Assembly: GCA_041576165.1 (NCBI GenBank)
Contig: JBFGLM010000047.1
Location: forward strand, 1 to 33,625
Reading direction: 5' to 3'
Length of the DNA: 33,625 nucleotides
Origin: Acidimicrobiia bacterium
GTDB taxonomy: Bacteria; Actinomycetota; Acidimicrobiia; Spongiisociales; Spongiisociaceae
Under the pieces are notes generated by a model. It saw nothing but the letters and a program-made list of their open reading frames with translations. It was not told the origin of the DNA and made no database searches. Made by a program: the position numbers and the translations under genes. Below, piece after piece: positions 3,917-12,173 of the stretch. Positions within the stretch are counted from its first letter, which is position 1. Every line of letters starts with the position of its first letter.

Positions 3917-4017
3917 GGAACCACGCTAGGCCGCAGACGCCGGGCCCAACTCTCACCCCCGACGCACCTCAGATTGGTTCGCACTAGGTGATCTCGTCGC
4001 CCTACTACGGTGCCTGC

Positions 4018-6444
4018 GTGGCGACTCCGATCGATCCCCGACCTGTGGCCAGCCGTCAACCTGCAGATGTGCCGTGCCGGGTGGTGGACAACGACCCGAT
4101 GATGCGACAGCTGGCGGCCGCACTCAAGAGTGCGGCCGGGTGCGCCATCGACACCGAGACGGTGTACACCACCGAACCGCTCGATGATGTCGGACCCGGC
4201 GCCCTGCGGGTTGTTTCGCTCGCCACGCGCGATCGTGACGGAGCCGAAACAACGTGGGTCGTCGACGTCGGTCGGGTCGACGCGATTCGCCTGGCTCGCA
4301 CGCTGTCCGGTGTTGACGCCGACGCGTGGAACGCCAACTTCGACGCAAGGGTTATCGACCGCGACCTGATGGCTCCGGCGATACGCGCAGGCCATGATGT
4401 ACGGCCCCTCCGTTGGTGGGACGCGCAGCTCGCCGACGCCTTGCTCTATCAGGGGTTGACTGGATTCGCCTACTTCCACGGTTTGGCCTGGGCGTGCGAG
4501 TGGTATCTCGGAATCAAGACGGATGGGAAGGGCACCACTCAACTGTCGTACCGCGCCGAGGGTGACCTGAGCGCCGAGCAGATCCGTTATGCAGCCGCCG
4601 ACGCGATCGAGACGCTGTGGGTGGCCGACGCGATCAGGCGCCGGATCGCCGACGCCGGACTTGACGTGGTGTGTGCCCTGGAGCAACGCGCCCGGCCGTT
4701 CCTCGATCAGATGGAGCGGGCCGGATTGCCGTTCGACTCCGACGGGTGGAGTGACGAGCTCGTTCGGATCGCCGAACGACGGCAAGCCGCCCTCGGACGG
4801 TTGGCCGATCTGACCGGCGGCGGGCAGGGCAGCTTGTTCTCAGAACATCTGGAACCATCTTGGAACCCGGGCAGTGAGTCGCAGACGAAGGCCATCTTGA
4901 ATGTCCACGCCCGCGACAGCGTCACTGCCTGGACCCGGCGGGTTCACGGAGTGGATCGCCTGCTCACCGAGTCGGATCCACTGCCGGCCGGCGTGTTGCG
5001 TGAGATTGGCGGCGAGTTGTGCGAGCGACTCCTCGAGTACCGCGACCTCACCAAGATTCTGACCACCTACGGAGAGACGTTTCGCGAGCAGGCGCATGCC
5101 GACGGCCGGGTGCATCCCGAGTACATTCAAGTGGTCGGAACCAGTACGGGACGGCTGGCAAGTCGCAATCCCAACGCCCAGAACCTCGCGCCGAGGATGA
5201 AGCGCTATTTCCGACCCTCCAACCCGGGCCGGGTATTTGTTCACGCTGACCTCAGCCAGGCGGAGTTGCGCTTCGTCGCGCAGGTCACCGGAGACGAGCA
5301 TCTGCGACAGGCGTTTCACGATGGTGTCGATGTTCACGTGGCGACCGCCACGCGCATGTTCCAGGTGGACATGGACGCCCTGAGAATCACCGATCCGGCG
5401 CGCCACGACGAGCTGCGGGCCAGAGCGAAGCGGATCAACTTCGGCATTGTCTATGGACAGCGCGGGGTCGGGCTGGCCCGCAGCCTCACGACGGCCGGGG
5501 TCGAAACATCCGGCCTGGAGGGTCGCGAGTTGTTGGATGCATATCTCGCCGTATATCCGGGGGTTGCCCGGTGGGTCGAAGAACGCGATCGGTTCATCGA
5601 GACCACCGCCGCATCGCGGCCGTCGATGGATTGGCCGCTGACGTTGCAGCTGCACCGCTGGTGGCCGGAGCTACGTGCGATCAGCCGGGAATTCCGGGAT
5701 GTCCACCGGCGCGCGCCCACGGTCGAGGAGGTGCATCTAGCCCTTGCCGGCGACCCCGGCCTGACTGTCGAGGAGACGGCGTGGGTATTGTCGTTCAATG
5801 CGCCGATCGCGCTGACCGCGACCGGTGATGCCTTCCGTTTTGTCTCGCACACGGCAGCGGGCCGCCGCCAGCAATTCACGATCCACACCGAGGGCATCCT
5901 GGCCGCCGCCGCCGAAGTGGTGCTGCGATCCACCAAGCCGGGTCCGGCGCAGGTGCGCCGGAATACGGTCACGCCCACAGGCCTGTCCGTGGAAGACCTG
6001 TGTGCGATGACGGGTGAAGGGGGCATTCCCAAGCTCGTCGAGGATCGGTCGTTACGCCGGGCGATCGTGGATCAGGTCAACGAGACCATGGGAGCGGACG
6101 CCACCAACGTGTTGCTCGGGGGCGCGCTAAGCCAGCGAATCGCACGGATGGCCAATGCGTATCGCAATGCGCCGATTCAGGGCGGTGTGGCCGATGTCAT
6201 GCTCGACGCCTTTGGAATGTTGCACGATCGGCTGGGCGATCACCCCGGCGCGTTGCCGGTCCAGACGGTTCACGACAGTGTGGTGATCGAGTGCAGTCGC
6301 GCGGATGCACGTGAGGTGGCGGTCACCGTGAAGGCGACGCTGGAGGGGGCAATGCGTCGATGGTGTCCCGATGTTCCGGCAGCGGCCGACACAGACGTGC
6401 GAACGAGTCTTTCGGAAGCCGACGTCGAATACGTCGTGGATTGA
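4018..6444 (+). CDS. Family A DNA polymerase with 3'-5' exonuclease, no 5' nuclease, and large insertions
   Basis: ExoI AIDTET, ExoII WNANFD, ExoIII YAAADA; TGRLAS.NPNAQN; motif A DLSQAELR; motif B RAKRINFGIVYG; NAPIQG; motif C VHDS. Start probably GTG 4018 (TACGGT 6 nt upstream); ORF open from 3988. Confidence 0.93.
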   Translation: MATPIDPRPVASRQPADVPCRVVDNDPMMRQLAAALKSAAGCAIDTETVYTTEPLDDVGPGALRVVSLATRDRDGAETTWVVDVGRVDAIRLARTLSGVDADAWNANFDARVIDRDLMAPAIRAGHDVRPLRWWDAQLADALLYQGLTGFAYFHGLAWACEWYLGIKTDGKGTTQLSYRAEGDLSAEQIRYAAADAIETLWVADAIRRRIADAGLDVVCALEQRARPFLDQMERAGLPFDSDGWSDELVRIAERRQAALGRLADLTGGGQGSLFSEHLEPSWNPGSESQTKAILNVHARDSVTAWTRRVHGVDRLLTESDPLPAGVLREIGGELCERLLEYRDLTKILTTYGETFREQAHADGRVHPEYIQVVGTSTGRLASRNPNAQNLAPRMKRYFRPSNPGRVFVHADLSQAELRFVAQVTGDEHLRQAFHDGVDVHVATATRMFQVDMDALRITDPARHDELRARAKRINFGIVYGQRGVGLARSLTTAGVETSGLEGRELLDAYLAVYPGVARWVEERDRFIETTAASRPSMDWPLTLQLHRWWPELRAISREFRDVHRRAPTVEEVHLALAGDPGLTVEETAWVLSFNAPIALTATGDAFRFVSHTAAGRRQQFTIHTEGILAAAAEVVLRSTKPGPAQVRRNTVTPTGLSVEDLCAMTGEGGIPKLVEDRSLRRAIVDQVNETMGADATNVLLGGALSQRIARMANAYRNAPIQGGVADVMLDAFGMLHDRLGDHPGALPVQTVHDSVVIECSRADAREVAVTVKATLEGAMRRWCPDVPAAADTDVRTSLSEADVEYVVD

Positions 6445-6523: not shown

Positions 6524-7969
6524 TCAATCGGGCGGTTGATTCAGCTCGATCGCGGCAGCCTGGAACTTGGCGGCTCGTGCCAGGCTTCCGCCGATGGCGT
6601 CTCGGATCCGAGGCGTGGCGGCATGGGCTAGATCTCCGACGGTCCGCACCCCGGCCGCGGCCAGCTCGGCTGCCAGGTGCCGGCCAATGCCTTTTACGTC
6701 GCTGGTCGGCCGGCCGCTGGCGATCACCGCGAGCTGGACTTCCGGTTCTGCCGACGGGGTCCCGGCCGCAGGTTCTTGGCGGACCACGGTTGCGAAGGTT
6801 GACGAGTCTGAGCCGGCCCGGAATGCCTGCGTCGCTACGACCGTGGTCGCGAAATCCGCATCCCGCAACCGAGCTATGGCCGAACCAAGCGGCTGGCCCA
6901 CCACGTCGGGCACCGCAACGGCACGTCGCACCGGCGCCCGCGCCAGGACCACCGCCACGGTACTGCCACGTTGTACCCGATCGCCGGCGGCGGGCCGTTG
7001 GTCGATGATGGAGTCCGGCTGCTCCCCGCTGACTCGGTAACTCACCGTACCGAGCACCAGCTCCGCTCCTTTCAGCTTCTTCTTGGCGTCCGTCAACGCC
7101 AGGCCCAGCAATTTCGGTACCTCCCGCTCGGGTGGTGCCGCCAATTCGACGTCGACCTCCGAACCGACGGGTGCCTTTTCGTCCGCAGATGGTGTTTGGG
7201 CGATGACGGTGCCGGTCATAGCCTCACTCGGCGTCTGGGTCGGGTCGCCCGCCACCAGGCGCAGGGCGGCCAGTCGGTCCCGGGCTTGGGCGAGCGTCAG
7301 CCCGACTAGATCTGGGACCGCCACTTCGGCGGCCGCGACCACGAGGTCGATTGCGGTCCCGGGCTCCACGTACGTACCGCCGTCGGGATCCTGCTCGACG
7401 ACCGATCGCGGCGGCGCAAAAGCAGGCCGCTCGGACACCTCTCCGACCACGAGGTTCGCAGCCGCGAGGCGCGTCTCTGCCCCATCGGTGGTTGCGCCCA
7501 GCACGGTGGGCACGAGGACCAGGCCGGTGAGGTCGGGATCGGGCCGGCTGACCCGGCTGATATCGAGCTCGACCCGGGCGAGCAGACCCGGGTCGATCTT
7601 CTCGCCGAGGCCCGGGAGCCGAATCACCGCTTGCTCACCGTCGCTGTCGACGGCGACCTTCAGCGCGAAGCTGGCGGACTGTACTCCGTACGTCGGCCCG
7701 TCCTCCGGCCCTGCTGCCTCGACGGCCGCGAGTCCGGCCCGCAGTTGCGCACCCAGCTGATCGAAGCTCAACGCCGGCCGCTCGGCCTGGATCTGCTCCA
7801 GCTCGGACCTCACGGCGTCCAGTTCCTCGCTGAGCGCATCCCGAGCCCGCTGCAGCTCGGCCCGCTCGGCTCGAAGCCGCACCTTTTCGGCCGCAACGGC
7901 CTCGAGCTCGGCGGTGAGCTCGTCGACGCGTCGCTGGAGACGCTTGATCTCGTCCGGGTCGGTTGCCAT
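6524..7969 (-). CDS. Coiled-coil + small alpha/beta domain + 4 PASTA repeats + C-terminal HhH protein
   Basis: N-terminal heptads; four VPxxxG...A...L...Q.P repeats; VKGIGRHLAAELAAAGVRTVGDLA HhH; no signal peptide or TM segment. Confidence 0.88.
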   Translation of the reverse strand: MATDPDEIKRLQRRVDELTAELEAVAAEKVRLRAERAELQRARDALSEELDAVRSELEQIQAERPALSFDQLGAQLRAGLAAVEAAGPEDGPTYGVQSASFALKVAVDSDGEQAVIRLPGLGEKIDPGLLARVELDISRVSRPDPDLTGLVLVPTVLGATTDGAETRLAAANLVVGEVSERPAFAPPRSVVEQDPDGGTYVEPGTAIDLVVAAAEVAVPDLVGLTLAQARDRLAALRLVAGDPTQTPSEAMTGTVIAQTPSADEKAPVGSEVDVELAAPPEREVPKLLGLALTDAKKKLKGAELVLGTVSYRVSGEQPDSIIDQRPAAGDRVQRGSTVAVVLARAPVRRAVAVPDVVGQPLGSAIARLRDADFATTVVATQAFRAGSDSSTFATVVRQEPAAGTPSAEPEVQLAVIASGRPTSDVKGIGRHLAAELAAAGVRTVGDLAHAATPRIRDAIGGSLARAAKFQAAAIELNQPPD

Positions 7970-7987: not shown

Positions 7988-8419
7988 TCAACCGGACCGC
8001 TGGGCGGGCGGCACGGACACAATCCTCGCTTTCACCGAACTGGTTCCGCTCGCCTCGAGCGTCGTCTCGCGACTCGTCCGGACGTTGTAGGGAACAGATC
8101 GCAACAGCGGTCGCAGCACCCGCCGGCCATCGGATCGAGTCTCCTCCTCCAGTTTCATCGTGAGCGCCATGCGTACGTCGATCTCGACTTCGGGGATGTG
8201 GTACCAGGTGGCATCGACCTGATAGCGGGCCAGCCCGCTCGGTTCGTCGCCGGCGTCAGCGATCGCGGCTGTGGTGAGCTCGTCGAGTTTGGCCTGGATC
8301 CGCATCGAGGTCTCGTCCATCGTTGCCTGCGCTTCGGCAACGGCCTGGGCCGTCTGGCTGAGCAGCACCCCGAATGGCACCTCCAGCAGCTCGTGGCTCG
8401 TGGTGACCAGATCAGCCAT
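7988..8419 (-). CDS. DUF2589-like protein, short paralog (143 aa)
   Basis: Start ATG 8419 overlaps the upstream stop (ATGGCTGA); ELLEVPFG...AVAEAQ..MD..S, WY.IPEVEIDVRM, GTSSVK...VPP. Confidence 0.8.
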   Translation of the reverse strand: MADLVTTSHELLEVPFGVLLSQTAQAVAEAQATMDETSMRIQAKLDELTTAAIADAGDEPSGLARYQVDATWYHIPEVEIDVRMALTMKLEEETRSDGRRVLRPLLRSVPYNVRTSRETTLEASGTSSVKARIVSVPPAQRSG

Positions 8420-9032
8420 TGCTTTCGACCGTGGTCCGGATCCGCGGAACCGAGCGCTCCGGGGGCGGCACCGGCAACAGCGTGGTCTTGAGCTGACTCG
8501 TCCCGTGTGCCTCCACACTGAACTTGTTCTTGTAGCGGGCGTTGATCGTCGTACTGAACGCGGTCGTGGTCGTGTTTTCGATCGACGACTTGGCCTTTCC
8601 GACGAGGAAGCTGGCCAGACCACCGGTCTGGAAGCCGCCTTTGACCGTGAGTTTGTTCCTCACGCTGAAGTTGGTGTTGGTTTCGAAGTCGAACTCGCGA
8701 CTCGAACGCATCGTGATCTCCATCTTGACGTCGATGATCGACTCGGAGAACTGATAGAAGGTCGGGTTCAACCCAAAGGCCAACAGCGACAGAGGTTGCG
8801 GATTGAGGACCGGGGTCGTCTCGATGACGTCGCCGTCATCATTCACCTTCTCCTCGATGGCGATGACGACCGTGTTCGCATCGAGTTCGGTCTGGGCCAG
8901 CGTCGTAGCCACCTGGATTGAATTGAGGTCCAGCTCCAGCTGCGCCTCGGCGATGGCGAGCGCCATCTCCTTGATCATCTCGCCAAATGGAACGTTCAGC
9001 AGCTCCTGGCCGACATCTACGGGTAATGCCAT
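8412..9032 (-). CDS. DUF2589-like protein, long paralog (206 aa)
   Basis: AAGGAG RBS 6 nt before ATG 9032; ELLNVPFG...AIAEAQ..LD..S, PTFYQFSESIIDVKM, Ser/Thr-rich beta region, GTSQLK...PVPPP. Confidence 0.85.
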   Translation of the reverse strand: MALPVDVGQELLNVPFGEMIKEMALAIAEAQLELDLNSIQVATTLAQTELDANTVVIAIEEKVNDDGDVIETTPVLNPQPLSLLAFGLNPTFYQFSESIIDVKMEITMRSSREFDFETNTNFSVRNKLTVKGGFQTGGLASFLVGKAKSSIENTTTTAFSTTINARYKNKFSVEAHGTSQLKTTLLPVPPPERSVPRIRTTVESNG

Positions 9033-9307
9033 CAACCGCTCCTTTCGTCGGGACCAGCGTCTGCGGCAGGCACGCGGATGCGCCGCGCTCGCTCAACACC
9101 CATCTGGACGCCACCGACAAGCGCCACCACGCCGTCAACCGCCACGGCGGATTTGAGACTGCGGTCGAGGAGAGCGATCCAGCCTCGCTCGAACGACAGC
9201 TGGATGGATGCACCCAGCTCGGCCAAGCGGCGCTCGACCCGGGCGCGATCCGATCGCTGCGCGTGTGAAGCGAGCGTCACGATTACCAACTCGGAACCGG
9301 CCTCCAC
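9032..9307 (-). CDS. Small hypothetical protein, first gene of the operon
   Basis: GGAGG before the GTG; its stop overlaps the next ATG (TGATG); beta-alpha-beta pattern ELVIVTL...RVERRLAELGASIQLSF..GWIALL...VALVGGV. Confidence 0.65.
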   Translation of the reverse strand: MEAGSELVIVTLASHAQRSDRARVERRLAELGASIQLSFERGWIALLDRSLKSAVAVDGVVALVGGVQMGVERARRIRVPAADAGPDERSG

Positions 9308-9431: not shown

Positions 9432-9962
9432 CTAGTGCCGCACCTCGGGGGAAGACCGATGCTGCGCGGGCCGCGGCACCCAGTAATAACCGGCCCAGGC
9501 GCCGAACAAAACTCCGATCAATGCGAACGGTATGGCGATGAACGCCAGCTGAGCTTCGTCCCCGGTTTCGGCCCACGCGGCGACGATCAGCGTGAATACC
9601 ACCGCGGGGCTGACGCCGATCAAGGCGCCCAGCACGGAACGCCCCAGCCGGATGGCGGTGGATTGCTGGCGTACGAGCAGATTCCCATCAGCATCCGTGG
9701 CTTTGCTCCGCACCCAGAACGAGTTCTCTCGCGGCGGGGGCAAAGCCAGTAGCACGCACACGACGGCGTAGATAGGGAAAGCGACCTGCACCAGCAGCAC
9801 CGTCCCAGTCGAGACCTCGGCAGCTGATGCGTCACCACGGGAGATGAAAAGGCCGACCAGACCGGCGCCGAGTCCGAGTGCGGCGAACCCGTTGCGCCAC
9901 CGATTCGTCAGGAACGCGACGACCGTCGCGCCCAATCCCACGATGAGTGACGGCAGAAGCAT
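9432..9962 (-). CDS. Hypothetical multi-pass membrane protein
   Basis: About five hydrophobic segments; GGAGG RBS upstream. Confidence 0.75.
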   Translation of the reverse strand: MLLPSLIVGLGATVVAFLTNRWRNGFAALGLGAGLVGLFISRGDASAAEVSTGTVLLVQVAFPIYAVVCVLLALPPPRENSFWVRSKATDADGNLLVRQQSTAIRLGRSVLGALIGVSPAVVFTLIVAAWAETGDEAQLAFIAIPFALIGVLFGAWAGYYWVPRPAQHRSSPEVRH

Positions 9963-10160: not shown

Positions 10161-11714
10161 TTACTCGTCACAGTGGCCGGGGCCGGTCACTCCTTCGTTG
10201 TAGTCGGCCAGGCTGCCCGCCAGGGCGATCGCGGCGTTGCGGTTGGGTCCTCGAGGGATCAGGTTGTCCCCGGGAGTTCCCGGACCGTCGGCATCCCACT
10301 GCTGCAGCATGGCTCCGGCGGCGGTCCAGTCGGCCAGCACTGCCGGCGGGATCGCGGCGCCGTTGAGCACGTTCAGTTCGGCGGCGATGTACTGGTGGGC
10401 CAGGATGTACCACGCATTACCACCCCGCGGCGTGGTCCACAGCACGTCGTAATAGCTCTGCCCGCTGCCGAAGAACGGCGTCGCCGACCCGTTCGGCAGG
10501 ATCAGATCCCACGTGTCGTCGAAGGGCGCCGGGCCCTGGTCGGAGTGGGTCTTCCAGTAGCCCTGGGTCAGGGTGCAGCCGCCGGTATCGGGGCAGTCGA
10601 CGAACACGTCCACAGTCCACGTGTCGCTCCCCTCGGTCCCGGTGTCGTTCGTGGTGAACGTGACGGTGTTCTTCATCTGCTGGTCGCCGCACTGCGTGTC
10701 GTCGAACGGGCCGACGTTGCGGACGTAGTGGAACGACGCCGGCACCAGGCTCGCGTCTACCGTGCCGAGGAAGCCGGCGAGGTCGTCGTTGACGTCGATC
10801 TCCTCGTCGATCTCGGTGGTCGGCGCCCCGAAGGCCACGTTGGCCGTGGCCTGGCCGCCGCCCACCTGGCCGGTTGTTGCAACCGTGGCCGTGTTGACCC
10901 GGTCGCTGCCGTCCGGCAGGTCGGCGCTGTAGGTGCAGTGCAGGCTGTCACCTGGCGCCAGCACGGCCGGCAGCGGCGGGCAGTGCAGCGTGGGCGCAAT
11001 GGGCCCCGAGATCACGTCGGTCACCGAGGTCACTGTGGCGGGGAGCGGGGTGTTGTTCTCCACCCAGATCTCGCCGCTCACCGCCCAGTCGCTGTCCTGG
11101 GAGGTGGCGTCGACGTCGATCCAGTAGGTCACCGGGAACTGCTGGCCGGGCGCCAGGTTGAGCGGGCCGGCGGTGTTGGCGGTCTTGTCGATCTCCCATG
11201 TCCAATTGCGGGTGAACTCGGTCTCGGCGGTCTTCTCGACGTCGACTTCCCAGTCGTAGCAGAACGAGATGTGGCTGATCGCGAACGGCTGGTTGTTGTT
11301 CGGGTTGACCGGGGCGTGGAGGCCGGTGTCCGACGTCTCCTCGGCGGGAGGGTCGTAGACGTACACGTTTGCGTTGGGACCGCCTTTGACGATCACTGCG
11401 TCGATGCCGATGGTCGACGTCCAGTCGAAGAAGGTGCCGTCGGACGTGATCGTCACCGACTCGGTCGTCAAGGCGTGCGGCGGCGTCGTAACCGGCCCGC
11501 CGAAGAAGTACGTCCCGCTCGGCGGCGGCTCTGGCTGCGGCTTGAACCCGAAGTCGTAGGCGAGGTCGACGCACTTCGGATTACCGGCCACAAAAACCGG
11601 ATTCACGTGATTCGCCGCCGCCCCTCTCGGGGTCAGGATGATGAGCGCCGCTGCCGCCACGATGGCGGCGATGACCGCAATGGCACCCCGACGGGATGCA
11701 TGGTCGTGATACAC
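10161..11714 (-). CDS. Secreted multidomain beta-rich protein of unknown function
   Basis: Start likely GTG 11714 (GAGGGG RBS); signal peptide ending ...PRGAAA; T/V/D-rich Ig-like repeats; C-terminal GCTLTQGYWKTH...LAHQYIAAELN...GPGHCDE. Confidence 0.85.
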   Translation of the reverse strand: MYHDHASRRGAIAVIAAIVAAAALIILTPRGAAANHVNPVFVAGNPKCVDLAYDFGFKPQPEPPPSGTYFFGGPVTTPPHALTTESVTITSDGTFFDWTSTIGIDAVIVKGGPNANVYVYDPPAEETSDTGLHAPVNPNNNQPFAISHISFCYDWEVDVEKTAETEFTRNWTWEIDKTANTAGPLNLAPGQQFPVTYWIDVDATSQDSDWAVSGEIWVENNTPLPATVTSVTDVISGPIAPTLHCPPLPAVLAPGDSLHCTYSADLPDGSDRVNTATVATTGQVGGGQATANVAFGAPTTEIDEEIDVNDDLAGFLGTVDASLVPASFHYVRNVGPFDDTQCGDQQMKNTVTFTTNDTGTEGSDTWTVDVFVDCPDTGGCTLTQGYWKTHSDQGPAPFDDTWDLILPNGSATPFFGSGQSYYDVLWTTPRGGNAWYILAHQYIAAELNVLNGAAIPPAVLADWTAAGAMLQQWDADGPGTPGDNLIPRGPNRNAAIALAGSLADYNEGVTGPGHCDE

Positions 11715-12173
11715 GAGGATCCCCTCTTTCTGCGCCCGCACAGAGGACGCGCCCACCGGAACCCGGGGAGATCGCGAATGCAGGCTCGAAAGTGGGTGGA
11801 TCCCCCAATTCGAAGCATCCGGAACCCGTCACCTGGGCCCCATGTCCCTTCAAGTCTCAGCGTGCCGATGGGGTGAGCGGCCCGCCAACCCCCCAAACTT
11901 AGCCCTCCGGCGCTGATCTGATAAGGGAGATTCTCGGGTTTCTTCAGCCGCCCTTGGGCTCCGACCTGCCCAGTGCCGAACCGGTCCCGGGATGCTGTTC
12001 GGACCAGCCGCCAGCAGCTTGGAGCCTGATCGCGCCGTAGCGGCGCAACCACAGATCAGCGCCCTGGTAAGCGCACCACCGACCACGGGAACGCGTGATC
12101 ATGACCTCGGCCTCTTGTCCGCAAACCGGCCGCGAGGTCAGATGGAGACAGACGTTATGCGTCGAGGAGTGTC

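Follow-up and report, generated by a model that had tools for sequence, protein, structure and literature searches.

Long amphipathic hairpins rich in Ser and Thr are best known from the beta-pore-forming toxins (aerolysin, lysenin, the alpha-haemolysin family, anthrax protective antigen (PA) and the binary-toxin translocases), in which each subunit of a secreted, soluble precursor contributes one such hairpin to the pore. Gasdermins and phage holins, which we take to be cytoplasmic proteins without export signals that carry a latent membrane element, perforate the membrane from inside, and PASTA repeats are familiar from Ser/Thr kinases and penicillin-binding proteins (PBPs). A fourth point of comparison, the DUF2589 family (PF11655), is uncharacterised: those parts of the literature that were covered mention DUF2589 in passing only and PF11655 not at all, and one report describes a DUF2589-related gene cluster (AF0414-AF0417) as up-regulated in Archaeoglobus fulgidus on lactate. 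Here we analyse a four-gene operon that touches on each of these systems. It lies in a stretch of 33,625 nucleotides (nt) from an Acidimicrobiia bacterium of the family Spongiisociaceae (assembly GCA_041576165.1, contig JBFGLM010000047.1, positions 1 to 33,625, called the window below), and no description of it came up in the literature searched for DUF2589 and PF11655, or among the entries listed for archaeal PASTA/coiled-coil proteins.

The core of the operon is a pair of genes for a long and a short paralog, which form the middle of a translationally coupled unit ordered as a protein of 91 amino acids (aa) with a predicted alpha/beta pattern, the long paralog, the short paralog and a 481-aa coiled-coil/PASTA protein. 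The stop codon of gene 1 overlaps the ATG of the long gene by 1 nt, the ATG of the short gene lies 8 nt before the long-gene stop, and gene 4 starts 18 nt past the short gene with GGAG ahead of its start. For the long gene, the ATG at 9032 is a likelier start than the TTG at 9035, with GAAAGGAG upstream of the ATG. The features, located from open reading frames (ORFs) and their translations unless stated otherwise, are:

9032..9307, minus strand: gene 1, small 91-aa protein, predicted alpha/beta (ferredoxin-like) pattern with a conserved LVGGV motif
8412..9032, minus strand: gene 2, long paralog, 206 aa, which begins with a long helix, followed by one short and one very long beta-hairpin
8511..8705, minus strand: 65-aa Ser/Thr-rich amphipathic hairpin insert of the long paralog, residues 110-174 (script count), predicted strand-turn-strand at low model confidence
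8598..8624, minus strand: GGLASFLVG tip of the hairpin, residues 137-145, with an aromatic residue and Lys at its flanks (hydropathy and ortholog consensus)
7988..8419, minus strand: gene 3, short paralog, 143 aa, which shares the core of the long paralog but whose equivalent hairpin is short and charged
8054..8152, minus strand: 33-aa charged segment of the short paralog, residues 90-122, counterpart of the long insert (script count)
6524..7969, minus strand: gene 4, 481-aa coiled-coil/PASTA protein without a signal peptide (Pfam and hydropathy)

The long and short genes are paralogs. BLASTP aligns their products at 60.8 bits (E 7e-17; 54 of 194 identities, 28%; gaps 27%), and the alignment shows all four motif blocks, namely ELLNVPFG/ELLEVPFG, AIAEAQ..D..S/AVAEAQ..D..S, FYQFSESIIDVKMEITM/WYHIPEVEIDVRMALTM and GTSQLKTTLLPVPP/GTSSVKARIVSVPP. 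The first-pass annotation of this DNA, made from its letters, had already recognised the two ORFs by these blocks as a paralogous pair that differs in one variable segment, 65 residues in the long protein against 33 mostly charged ones in the short, and both the pair and the count are borne out; its partners in the operon, the small alpha/beta protein and the coiled-coil PASTA protein, had gone unnoticed. Ser and Thr make up 28% of the long segment compared with 18% of the whole long protein, and charged residues (D/E/K/R in the short one) account for 39% of the short segment and 22% of the long. Relatives were collected from a set with one genome per species, in which 427 stretches encode one, and the best 80 loci were kept and analysed. 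It turned out that the long/short pattern is far beyond chance; a short-type paralog directly follows the long one in 65 of these 80 related loci.

The segment that distinguishes the long paralog had been read beforehand as a Ser/Thr-rich beta-hairpin with a hydrophobic tip, and none of the outcomes named as speaking against this, such as a helical or disordered prediction or a lack of conservation in homologs, was obtained. AlphaFold2, given an alignment of 30 sequences (A1), predicts a helix at residues 16-47 and strands at 56-63, 69-76, 98-132 and 151-185, with a mean predicted local distance difference test (pLDDT) of 59.9; the insert thus comes out as strand-turn-strand, though at a pLDDT below 50 for residues 110-174. 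Both long strands alternate strictly, the apolar faces having a mean Kyte-Doolittle value of +1.46/+0.98 and the polar charged faces one of -2.57/-2.16, in a phase that matches the AlphaFold2 register. Phe, Tyr and Thr are frequent on the apolar face. Of 68 unique close orthologs, 66 have an insert of exactly 65 residues, and its tip follows the consensus (S/G)(Y/F)x(S/T)GGLAx(L/F)L(F/V)GK, common to archaeal and bacterial orthologs. The hairpin is among the most constrained parts of the long protein. The maximum of 9-residue hydropathy within the insert is 1.6, at residues 140-141.

A hydrophobic centre of this kind seems to persist in distant relatives. Among 150 representatives, 92 could be parsed (the other 58 were dropped), and a Gly-containing hydrophobic 7-mer, often rich in Trp, falls into the central third of the insert in 49 of the 92 and into the outer thirds in 12 of the 92. 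In make-up, tips of Gly and aromatic residues with Lys beside them resemble loops that lie at membrane interfaces, for instance the fusion loops of viral class II fusion proteins.

For the short paralog, AlphaFold2 (alignment A2) gives a more confident model (pLDDT 75.3, predicted TM-score 0.58), with a helix at residues 16-55 and strands at 77-94, 100-110 and 127-134. Both models therefore suggest a common core of one long helix and a small sheet, of which the long paralog would prolong the first hairpin. In addition, a scan for hydropathy, a heuristic and not a trained predictor, found no transmembrane (TM) helix or N-terminal hydrophobic segment in the four operon proteins or in the archaeal homologs. 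The best 19-residue Kyte-Doolittle mean of the long and short proteins and their archaeal orthologs is at most 1.14, and the windows of at least 1.6 in the operon proteins are only Ala/Val-rich stretches of the high-GC set, absent from the archaeal orthologs. All four proteins are made as soluble cytoplasmic proteins, and since no TM helix or N-terminal hydrophobic segment occurs in any of them, the hairpin tip is their sole lipophilic element.

Gene 4 encodes the constant partner of the pair. Its product starts with a coiled coil (about residues 4-67) that leads into a conserved central domain (about 59-155); then come four PASTA repeats (about 149-345) and, towards the C-terminus, a helix-hairpin-helix domain (about 424-460). 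PASTA membership is clear from Pfam PF03793 (E 3e-40; 136.4 bits against a cut-off of 23.2; four stretches), and the C-terminal part matches HHH_5 with a Pfam E of 2.7e-4. The NCBIfam and PADLOC matches of this protein (PknB_PASTA_kin and PD-T4-6) are confined to the PASTA region. With PASTA kinases and PBPs it shares, alone among the four proteins, these bona fide repeats; unlike them, it lacks a kinase or transpeptidase domain as well as a TM helix and a signal peptide, its N-terminus is a coiled coil followed by a family-specific central domain, and it has orthologs in archaea. The orthologs carry 1 to 5 PASTA repeats each, and the central domain is conserved across them (alignment A5). We also considered this central domain as a third, diverged paralog, which could not be established: hhalign against A2 gave a probability of 12% and an E of 0.0024 with the expected motifs aligned, and A5 against an alignment of 52 family members (A4) gave a probability of 1%.

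The product of gene 1, like the two paralogs, has no match among Pfam, NCBIfam, PADLOC (PADLOC-DB 2.0) or PHROG models. It is homologous to the small ORF of the loci L001 (E 2.8e-10) and L028 (E 4.4e-4), and the ESM Atlas offers leads only (NolW-like 0.90, Inhibitor_I9 0.86, and weak protease-prodomain leads at 0.84-0.86).

To describe the spread of the family, we searched the ORFs of the 80 loci with the window proteins and clustered them. The long, short and PASTA genes are consecutive in 62 of the 80 loci, from Methanosarcinales, other archaea and several bacterial phyla, and a small-protein cluster of about 85 aa, homologous to gene 1, is found in 46 of them, in bacteria mostly ahead of the long gene and in archaea mostly behind the PASTA gene. 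Of the loci left over, many are short contigs. Among these loci the closest relative, at 82% identity, is L001 from a metagenome-assembled genome (MAG) of Acidimicrobiaceae. The next ones, at 50-58% identity, belong to Methanosarcina, Methanolobus, ANME-2, Syntrophoarchaeum, Methanoperedenaceae, Archaeoglobaceae and Bathyarchaeia, and interleaved among them are Aquificales, Acetobacteraceae, Burkholderiales, Chitinophagales, Leptospirales and Syntrophaceae; between the genome of the window and Methanosarcina the identity is 55-57%. A word-indexed search with the long paralog returned 380 homologs at E<=1e-3, and no precomputed Pfam domain is present among the 120 of them that were listed, while an exhaustive search of cluster representatives returned 559 at E<=1e-3 and 205 at E<=1e-10. 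A weak match to pAdhesive_6 (9 of 30 members, best E 0.0029, below the cut-off) was rejected as compositional.

In Methanosarcina and Methanolobus the cassette occupies one fixed place, upstream of rpl3-rpl4-rpl23-rpl2-rps19 (checked with Pfam on L002), and of the 201 Methanosarcinales genomes sampled, 51 carry it. Among other genomes of the window's order it was found in 3 of 300, and among those of the same family in 0 of 28; the bacterial distribution is patchy and looks horizontally transferred. The distant relatives L069, L075 and L080 form larger clusters of four to six paralogs together with coiled-coil and PASTA-bearing proteins.

Several related loci deviate in detail. In two genomes of the window's order (L093:7675-10289 in G397, and L094 in G438) there is a divergent module with a small ORF first and then two long-paralog matches at 35-46% identity, one of which is called as an ORF (245 aa); downstream follow a 156-aa ORF that is short-type by eye and a 231-aa coiled-coil protein without a PASTA match. 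In L001:2377-4022 the counterpart of the PASTA gene consists of two ORFs that overlap (337 and 221 aa, with PASTA, DUF4332 and HhH in the latter), owing either to a frameshift or to a fault of assembly. A gene for a 1362-aa protein with 11 PASTA repeats (Pfam E 1e-102) closely precedes the cassette of a Methanosarcina sp. (L002:3405-7490), and L006 has a 1526-aa counterpart upstream that strongly matches the PASTA protein in a direct comparison. Archaea of the Methanosarcina type have cell walls without peptidoglycan, and PASTA-rich proteins are unexpected there.

The best candidate for a wider kinship of the paralogs is DUF2589. In the ESM Atlas, the clusters nearest to the long protein carry PF11655 on 31%, 46% and 94% of their members. 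The PF11655 hidden Markov model (HMM; gathering threshold 23 bits) matches neither the long nor the short protein at E<=1, none of the 30 close relatives in A1 at E<=1, none of 70 cluster representatives at E<=0.01, and, with the genome of the window translated in six frames, nothing at E<=10; as a control, it scores 102.9 bits on a protein of L081. Profile comparison reaches further: hhalign of A4 against five true DUF2589 proteins (A3) gave a probability of 84.3% (E 7.2e-6, 169 columns), a link whose support is moderate because that profile holds 5 sequences only, and A1 against a single DUF2589 protein gave 64.7% (E 6.2e-5).

The two families are collinear in an N-terminal helix with an A..AQ motif, a "P.F....ET.I(D/E)" strand, a Ser/Thr-rich hairpin with a Gly/aromatic centre, an "(A/S)SYS.K" strand and a Pro-containing C-terminus, and DUF2589 is likewise found as tandem copies with a partner gene. 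They differ in the C-terminal motif, PVPPP in the window family versus ELP.G, and in the partner, a protein of 233-272 aa beside true DUF2589 genes versus the coiled-coil/PASTA and small alpha/beta proteins here. We therefore regard the paralogs, on moderate and not conclusive evidence, as a divergent branch of the DUF2589 superfamily that its model does not detect.

Searches for known folds were less informative. A sequence search of the PDB with the paralogs gave just one row, a spurious thiolase (E 0.0088), and Foldseek gave no PDB row at E<=1e-3 for either model; the best Z in the wide VIA search was 3.7 for the long model and 4.9 for the short one, the latter on the long helix only. The only Foldseek rows of the long model with any probability are long-hairpin assemblies, first tail parts of the podoviruses P68 and Andhra (6iac_B, E 0.028, probability 0.75; 8egr_I, E 0.028, probability 0.91; 6qz9, E 0.099) and then the pores of anthrax PA, aerolysin and lysenin (E 0.13-1.7, over the hairpin only, where the model has low confidence). 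VIA found 6iac_B again, with Z 3.4 over the hairpin. Small podovirus tail-knob, lower-collar and tube proteins (P68, Andhra, phi29) resemble the long paralog in combining helices with a long tube-forming hairpin and provide the best Foldseek rows, but these rows lie below any significance threshold and the operon family has no phage context. For the short model, the only near-full-length neighbour is an unnamed 148-aa viral protein in BFVD (A0A516L4Y6; E 8.5e-3, probability 0.99, TM-score 0.45), which may be a viral member of the superfamily. A complex prediction of the long and short proteins, each with its own alignment, scored 0.02 against a mark of 0.32, a result that weighs neither for nor against binding.

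What lies next to the cassette, or is fused to it, points to the cell envelope. L075:12073 (Pfam E 2.9e-5) and P0239 (E 2.6e-7) are fusions of a short-type paralog with PASTA, L069:11677 and L079:11013 have C-terminal extensions that look PASTA-like by eye, and P0171, the only case from a search for longer fused forms, which gives weak evidence, joins a relative to a ConA-like lectin domain. Signal-less M15 peptidases are encoded directly upstream in L038 and L048, the one in L048 with PG_binding_1; MltA follows the cassette of L049, and PG_binding_1/M74-like proteins follow the cluster of L080.

Other neighbours are of different kinds. In two loci from different phyla, L001:75-938 (the Acidimicrobiaceae MAG) and L038:10605-11541 (a Chitinophagales MAG), the cassette is flanked by genes for a conserved unknown protein of about 145 aa and for a tail-tube protein of the T4 gp19 type (PF06841; E 3e-36 and 4.5e-33). 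Within the stretches read, no sheath or baseplate gene was seen near this pair, gp19 neighbours occur in these two loci only, the genome of the window has no gp19-like gene, and its proteins match neither PF06841 nor the Phage_tube_2 HMM; a distant relative, P0164, matches Phage_tube_2 at E 0.002, below the cut-off. In L040:3063-7641 (a Burkholderiales MAG), a TIR-domain protein and a 1040-aa nSTAND1-TPR NTPase are encoded directly upstream in the same orientation. A phage origin of the family found no support (tblastn gave relatives in 0 of 50,697 phage records, with no PHROG match), nor did a plasmid origin (1 of 72,556 plasmids, a Sphaerotilus megaplasmid at 36% identity). Two pattern scans of IMG/VR, made with few peptide patterns that can miss distant relatives, also gave no relative.

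The explanation that we prefer, at a little short of even confidence, is a hetero-oligomeric hairpin assembly that engages the membrane from the inside, with the long hairpins forming a barrel or tube, the short paralog sharing the ring and the PASTA protein tying it to an envelope polymer. Long and short subunits would co-assemble into a ring through their core of a long helix plus a beta-meander, and the 65-residue hairpins of the long subunits would align side by side into a beta-barrel or tube, whose Gly-rich hydrophobic tip with its aromatic and Lys flanks would dip into or cross the cytoplasmic membrane. The short subunits, with their short charged hairpin, would fill or space the ring without inserting, and the coiled-coil protein would dock via its central domain and bind an envelope polymer through its PASTA repeats. 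The outcome could be a controlled perforation of the envelope or a conduit, holin- or gasdermin-like in function and like the stem of a beta-pore toxin in shape. Oligomerisation, barrel formation, membrane contact and the physiological role are the parts of this proposal that we infer.

The likeness to gasdermins and holins is functional, and it extends to the neighbourhood, in that the signal-less wall hydrolases adjoining the cassette in L038 and L048 would need such a lesion. The searches showed no likeness of the operon proteins to either group in sequence or in fold. Holins differ in being helical membrane proteins with one to four TM helices, of which the operon proteins have none. As for gasdermins, they gave no Pfam or PADLOC match and are absent from the fold-search rows, and no protease gene is a constant neighbour.

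A number of observations weigh against an assembly of this kind. Confidence in the model is low over precisely the insert, and neither model has a significant fold match. The apolar face runs the full length of each strand, roughly 35 residues, and Asn and Thr are among its side chains; at about 3.3 Å per residue its reach is estimated to be near 100 Å, well beyond the thickness of a bilayer, and such a full-length face fits a protein-protein interface as well as it fits lipid. Most of the 143 ORFs in the flanks of 31 loci are unrelated housekeeping genes, and in the window no cell-wall hydrolase stands beside the operon. The fixed place by ribosomal genes and the presence in 51 of the 201 Methanosarcinales genomes are unusual for a lytic or suicidal device. 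Lastly, the archaeal walls concerned offer no peptidoglycan as a ligand for the PASTA repeats.

Some of these observations are accommodated by the first of the alternatives, which we hold to be possible if doubtful: the paralogs might polymerise as a cytoplasmic tube, sheet, cage or filament that has no membrane contact, the hydrophobic face being the interface between subunits, the PASTA protein a spacer or tether and the tip an element of packing. A hydrophobic face along all 35 residues of the strands, with an abundance of Phe, Tyr and Thr, agrees with this, and so does an insert whose length and sequence are extremely conserved across domains of life with differing lipids. The top Foldseek rows are phage tail and collar tubes built of helices and long hairpins (6iac_B and 8egr_I), and gp19-type tail-tube genes adjoin the cassette in L001 and L038; however, no fold match to tube proteins is significant, the window's genome is without a gp19-like gene, and neither the 50,697 phage genomes searched by tblastn nor the IMG/VR pattern scans yielded a relative. 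The stable chromosomal position in Methanosarcinaceae and the several paralogs per cluster in L069, L075 and L080 would also suit such a polymer. What it leaves aside is that tips rich in Trp, Gly and Phe, typical of membrane-interface loops, recur across the superfamily, and that the partners and fusions are wall- or glycan-binding modules.

An unlikely alternative is a scaffold or sensor of the envelope without perforation, in which the tip would anchor the assembly peripherally to the inner face of the membrane, the PASTA protein would organise or sense envelope or division material, and the paralogs would serve as adaptors. The constant partner carries PASTA repeats and a long coiled coil, in keeping with such a role, and a second, very large PASTA-type protein is encoded just upstream in L002 (11 stretches) and L006. 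PASTA domains of characterised proteins act outside the membrane, yet the gene 4 protein has no export signal. A tip of 9 residues reaches one leaflet only, as a peripheral anchor should, but a hairpin of 65 residues exceeds what such an anchor needs. Similarly, the housekeeping-like synteny in Methanosarcinaceae agrees with a scaffold, whereas the patchy occurrence in the window's order and family (3 of 300 and 0 of 28) argues against a core function in the bacterial envelope.

It is improbable that the pore-forming assembly is the suicide effector of an anti-phage or conflict system, with the PASTA or small protein as trigger or inhibitor. The idea draws on the patchy, seemingly horizontal distribution in bacteria, on the TIR and nSTAND1-TPR genes upstream in L040, and on the soluble cytosolic precursors with a latent membrane element, which gasdermins have likewise. 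Against it, PADLOC has no match for the paralogs or the small protein and reaches PD-T4-6 through the PASTA repeats only; L040 is the only one of the 31 loci scanned for flanks with a conflict-type neighbour, the locus in Methanosarcinaceae is fixed by ribosomal genes, and the window is one of ordinary metabolism.

A secreted binary beta-pore-forming toxin against other cells is hardly credible. In its favour are the Ser/Thr-rich amphipathic hairpin with its hydrophobic tip and the weak Foldseek rows to the pores of aerolysin, lysenin and anthrax PA (E 0.13-0.4). Against it, the proteins have no signal peptide, no neighbouring secretion system, no receptor-binding or cap domain and no significant similarity in fold or sequence to toxin families, and free-living methanogens keep strongly conserved orthologs at a housekeeping locus.

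Part of the original idea survives. The first-pass annotation had likened the long subunit to beta-pore-forming toxins and taken it for the inserting or tube-forming unit, with the short one as a putative cap, adaptor or inhibitor. A long hairpin with a membrane-seeking tip in such a unit is a fair reading; a homology to toxins, a significant fold match and a signal peptide found no support, the Foldseek rows for those pores being at E of at least 0.13, the best VIA Z at 3.7 and the N-terminus, by the hydropathy heuristic, not that of a secreted precursor. The toxins share with the long paralog one long amphipathic hairpin per subunit and a soluble precursor. They differ in that their lipid-facing stem is confined to the tip region, whereas the apolar face here runs along the whole hairpin, and in that the core here, one long helix and a small sheet, has no PDB match. 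The length and sequence of the insert are also highly conserved here, the sequence far more so than would be expected of a toxin stem.

The surroundings of the operon in the window are an ordinary chromosome, with genes for a TetR regulator, a family-A DNA polymerase, a SatP-type channel, a GH1 glycosidase, methylmalonyl-CoA mutase and fatty-acid oxidation, and no mobile-element genes were seen in it. The GC content at third codon positions of three operon genes (0.73-0.83; the short gene was dropped by the overlap filter of the script) is like that of the neighbours. Convergent with the operon, at 3988-6444 on the plus strand, is the polymerase gene, encoding 818 aa with a 3'-5' exonuclease domain and without a 5' nuclease domain; the match to its polymerase domain is divided into two stretches, as an insertion would explain. 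The operon's own strand has, upstream, genes for a 176-aa multi-pass membrane protein without a family match (9432-9962, minus) and for a 531-aa protein whose N-terminus has a hydrophobic segment and which matches DUF7507 weakly (10161-11756, minus), both probably unrelated since neither recurs beside the cassette in other loci.

In conclusion, the operon represents a compact, strongly conserved module of four proteins, which methanogenic archaea have in common with several bacterial phyla at about 55% identity. It raises the question of which ligand the PASTA repeats have in a protein without an export signal, in archaea without peptidoglycan. We consider it rather unlikely, and put it forward as a speculation, that DUF2589-like pairs are an unrecognised archaeal and bacterial class of membrane perforators, which would form a beta-barrel pore from the cytoplasmic side and let signal-less wall-binding proteins (the PASTA partner, endolysin-like peptidases) reach the envelope by a route of export or lysis that is neither holin nor Sec. 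If the hairpin does engage or open the membrane from inside, a beta-barrel device would join holins and gasdermins among the inside-out perforators, and the DUF2589 superfamily would gain its first function.

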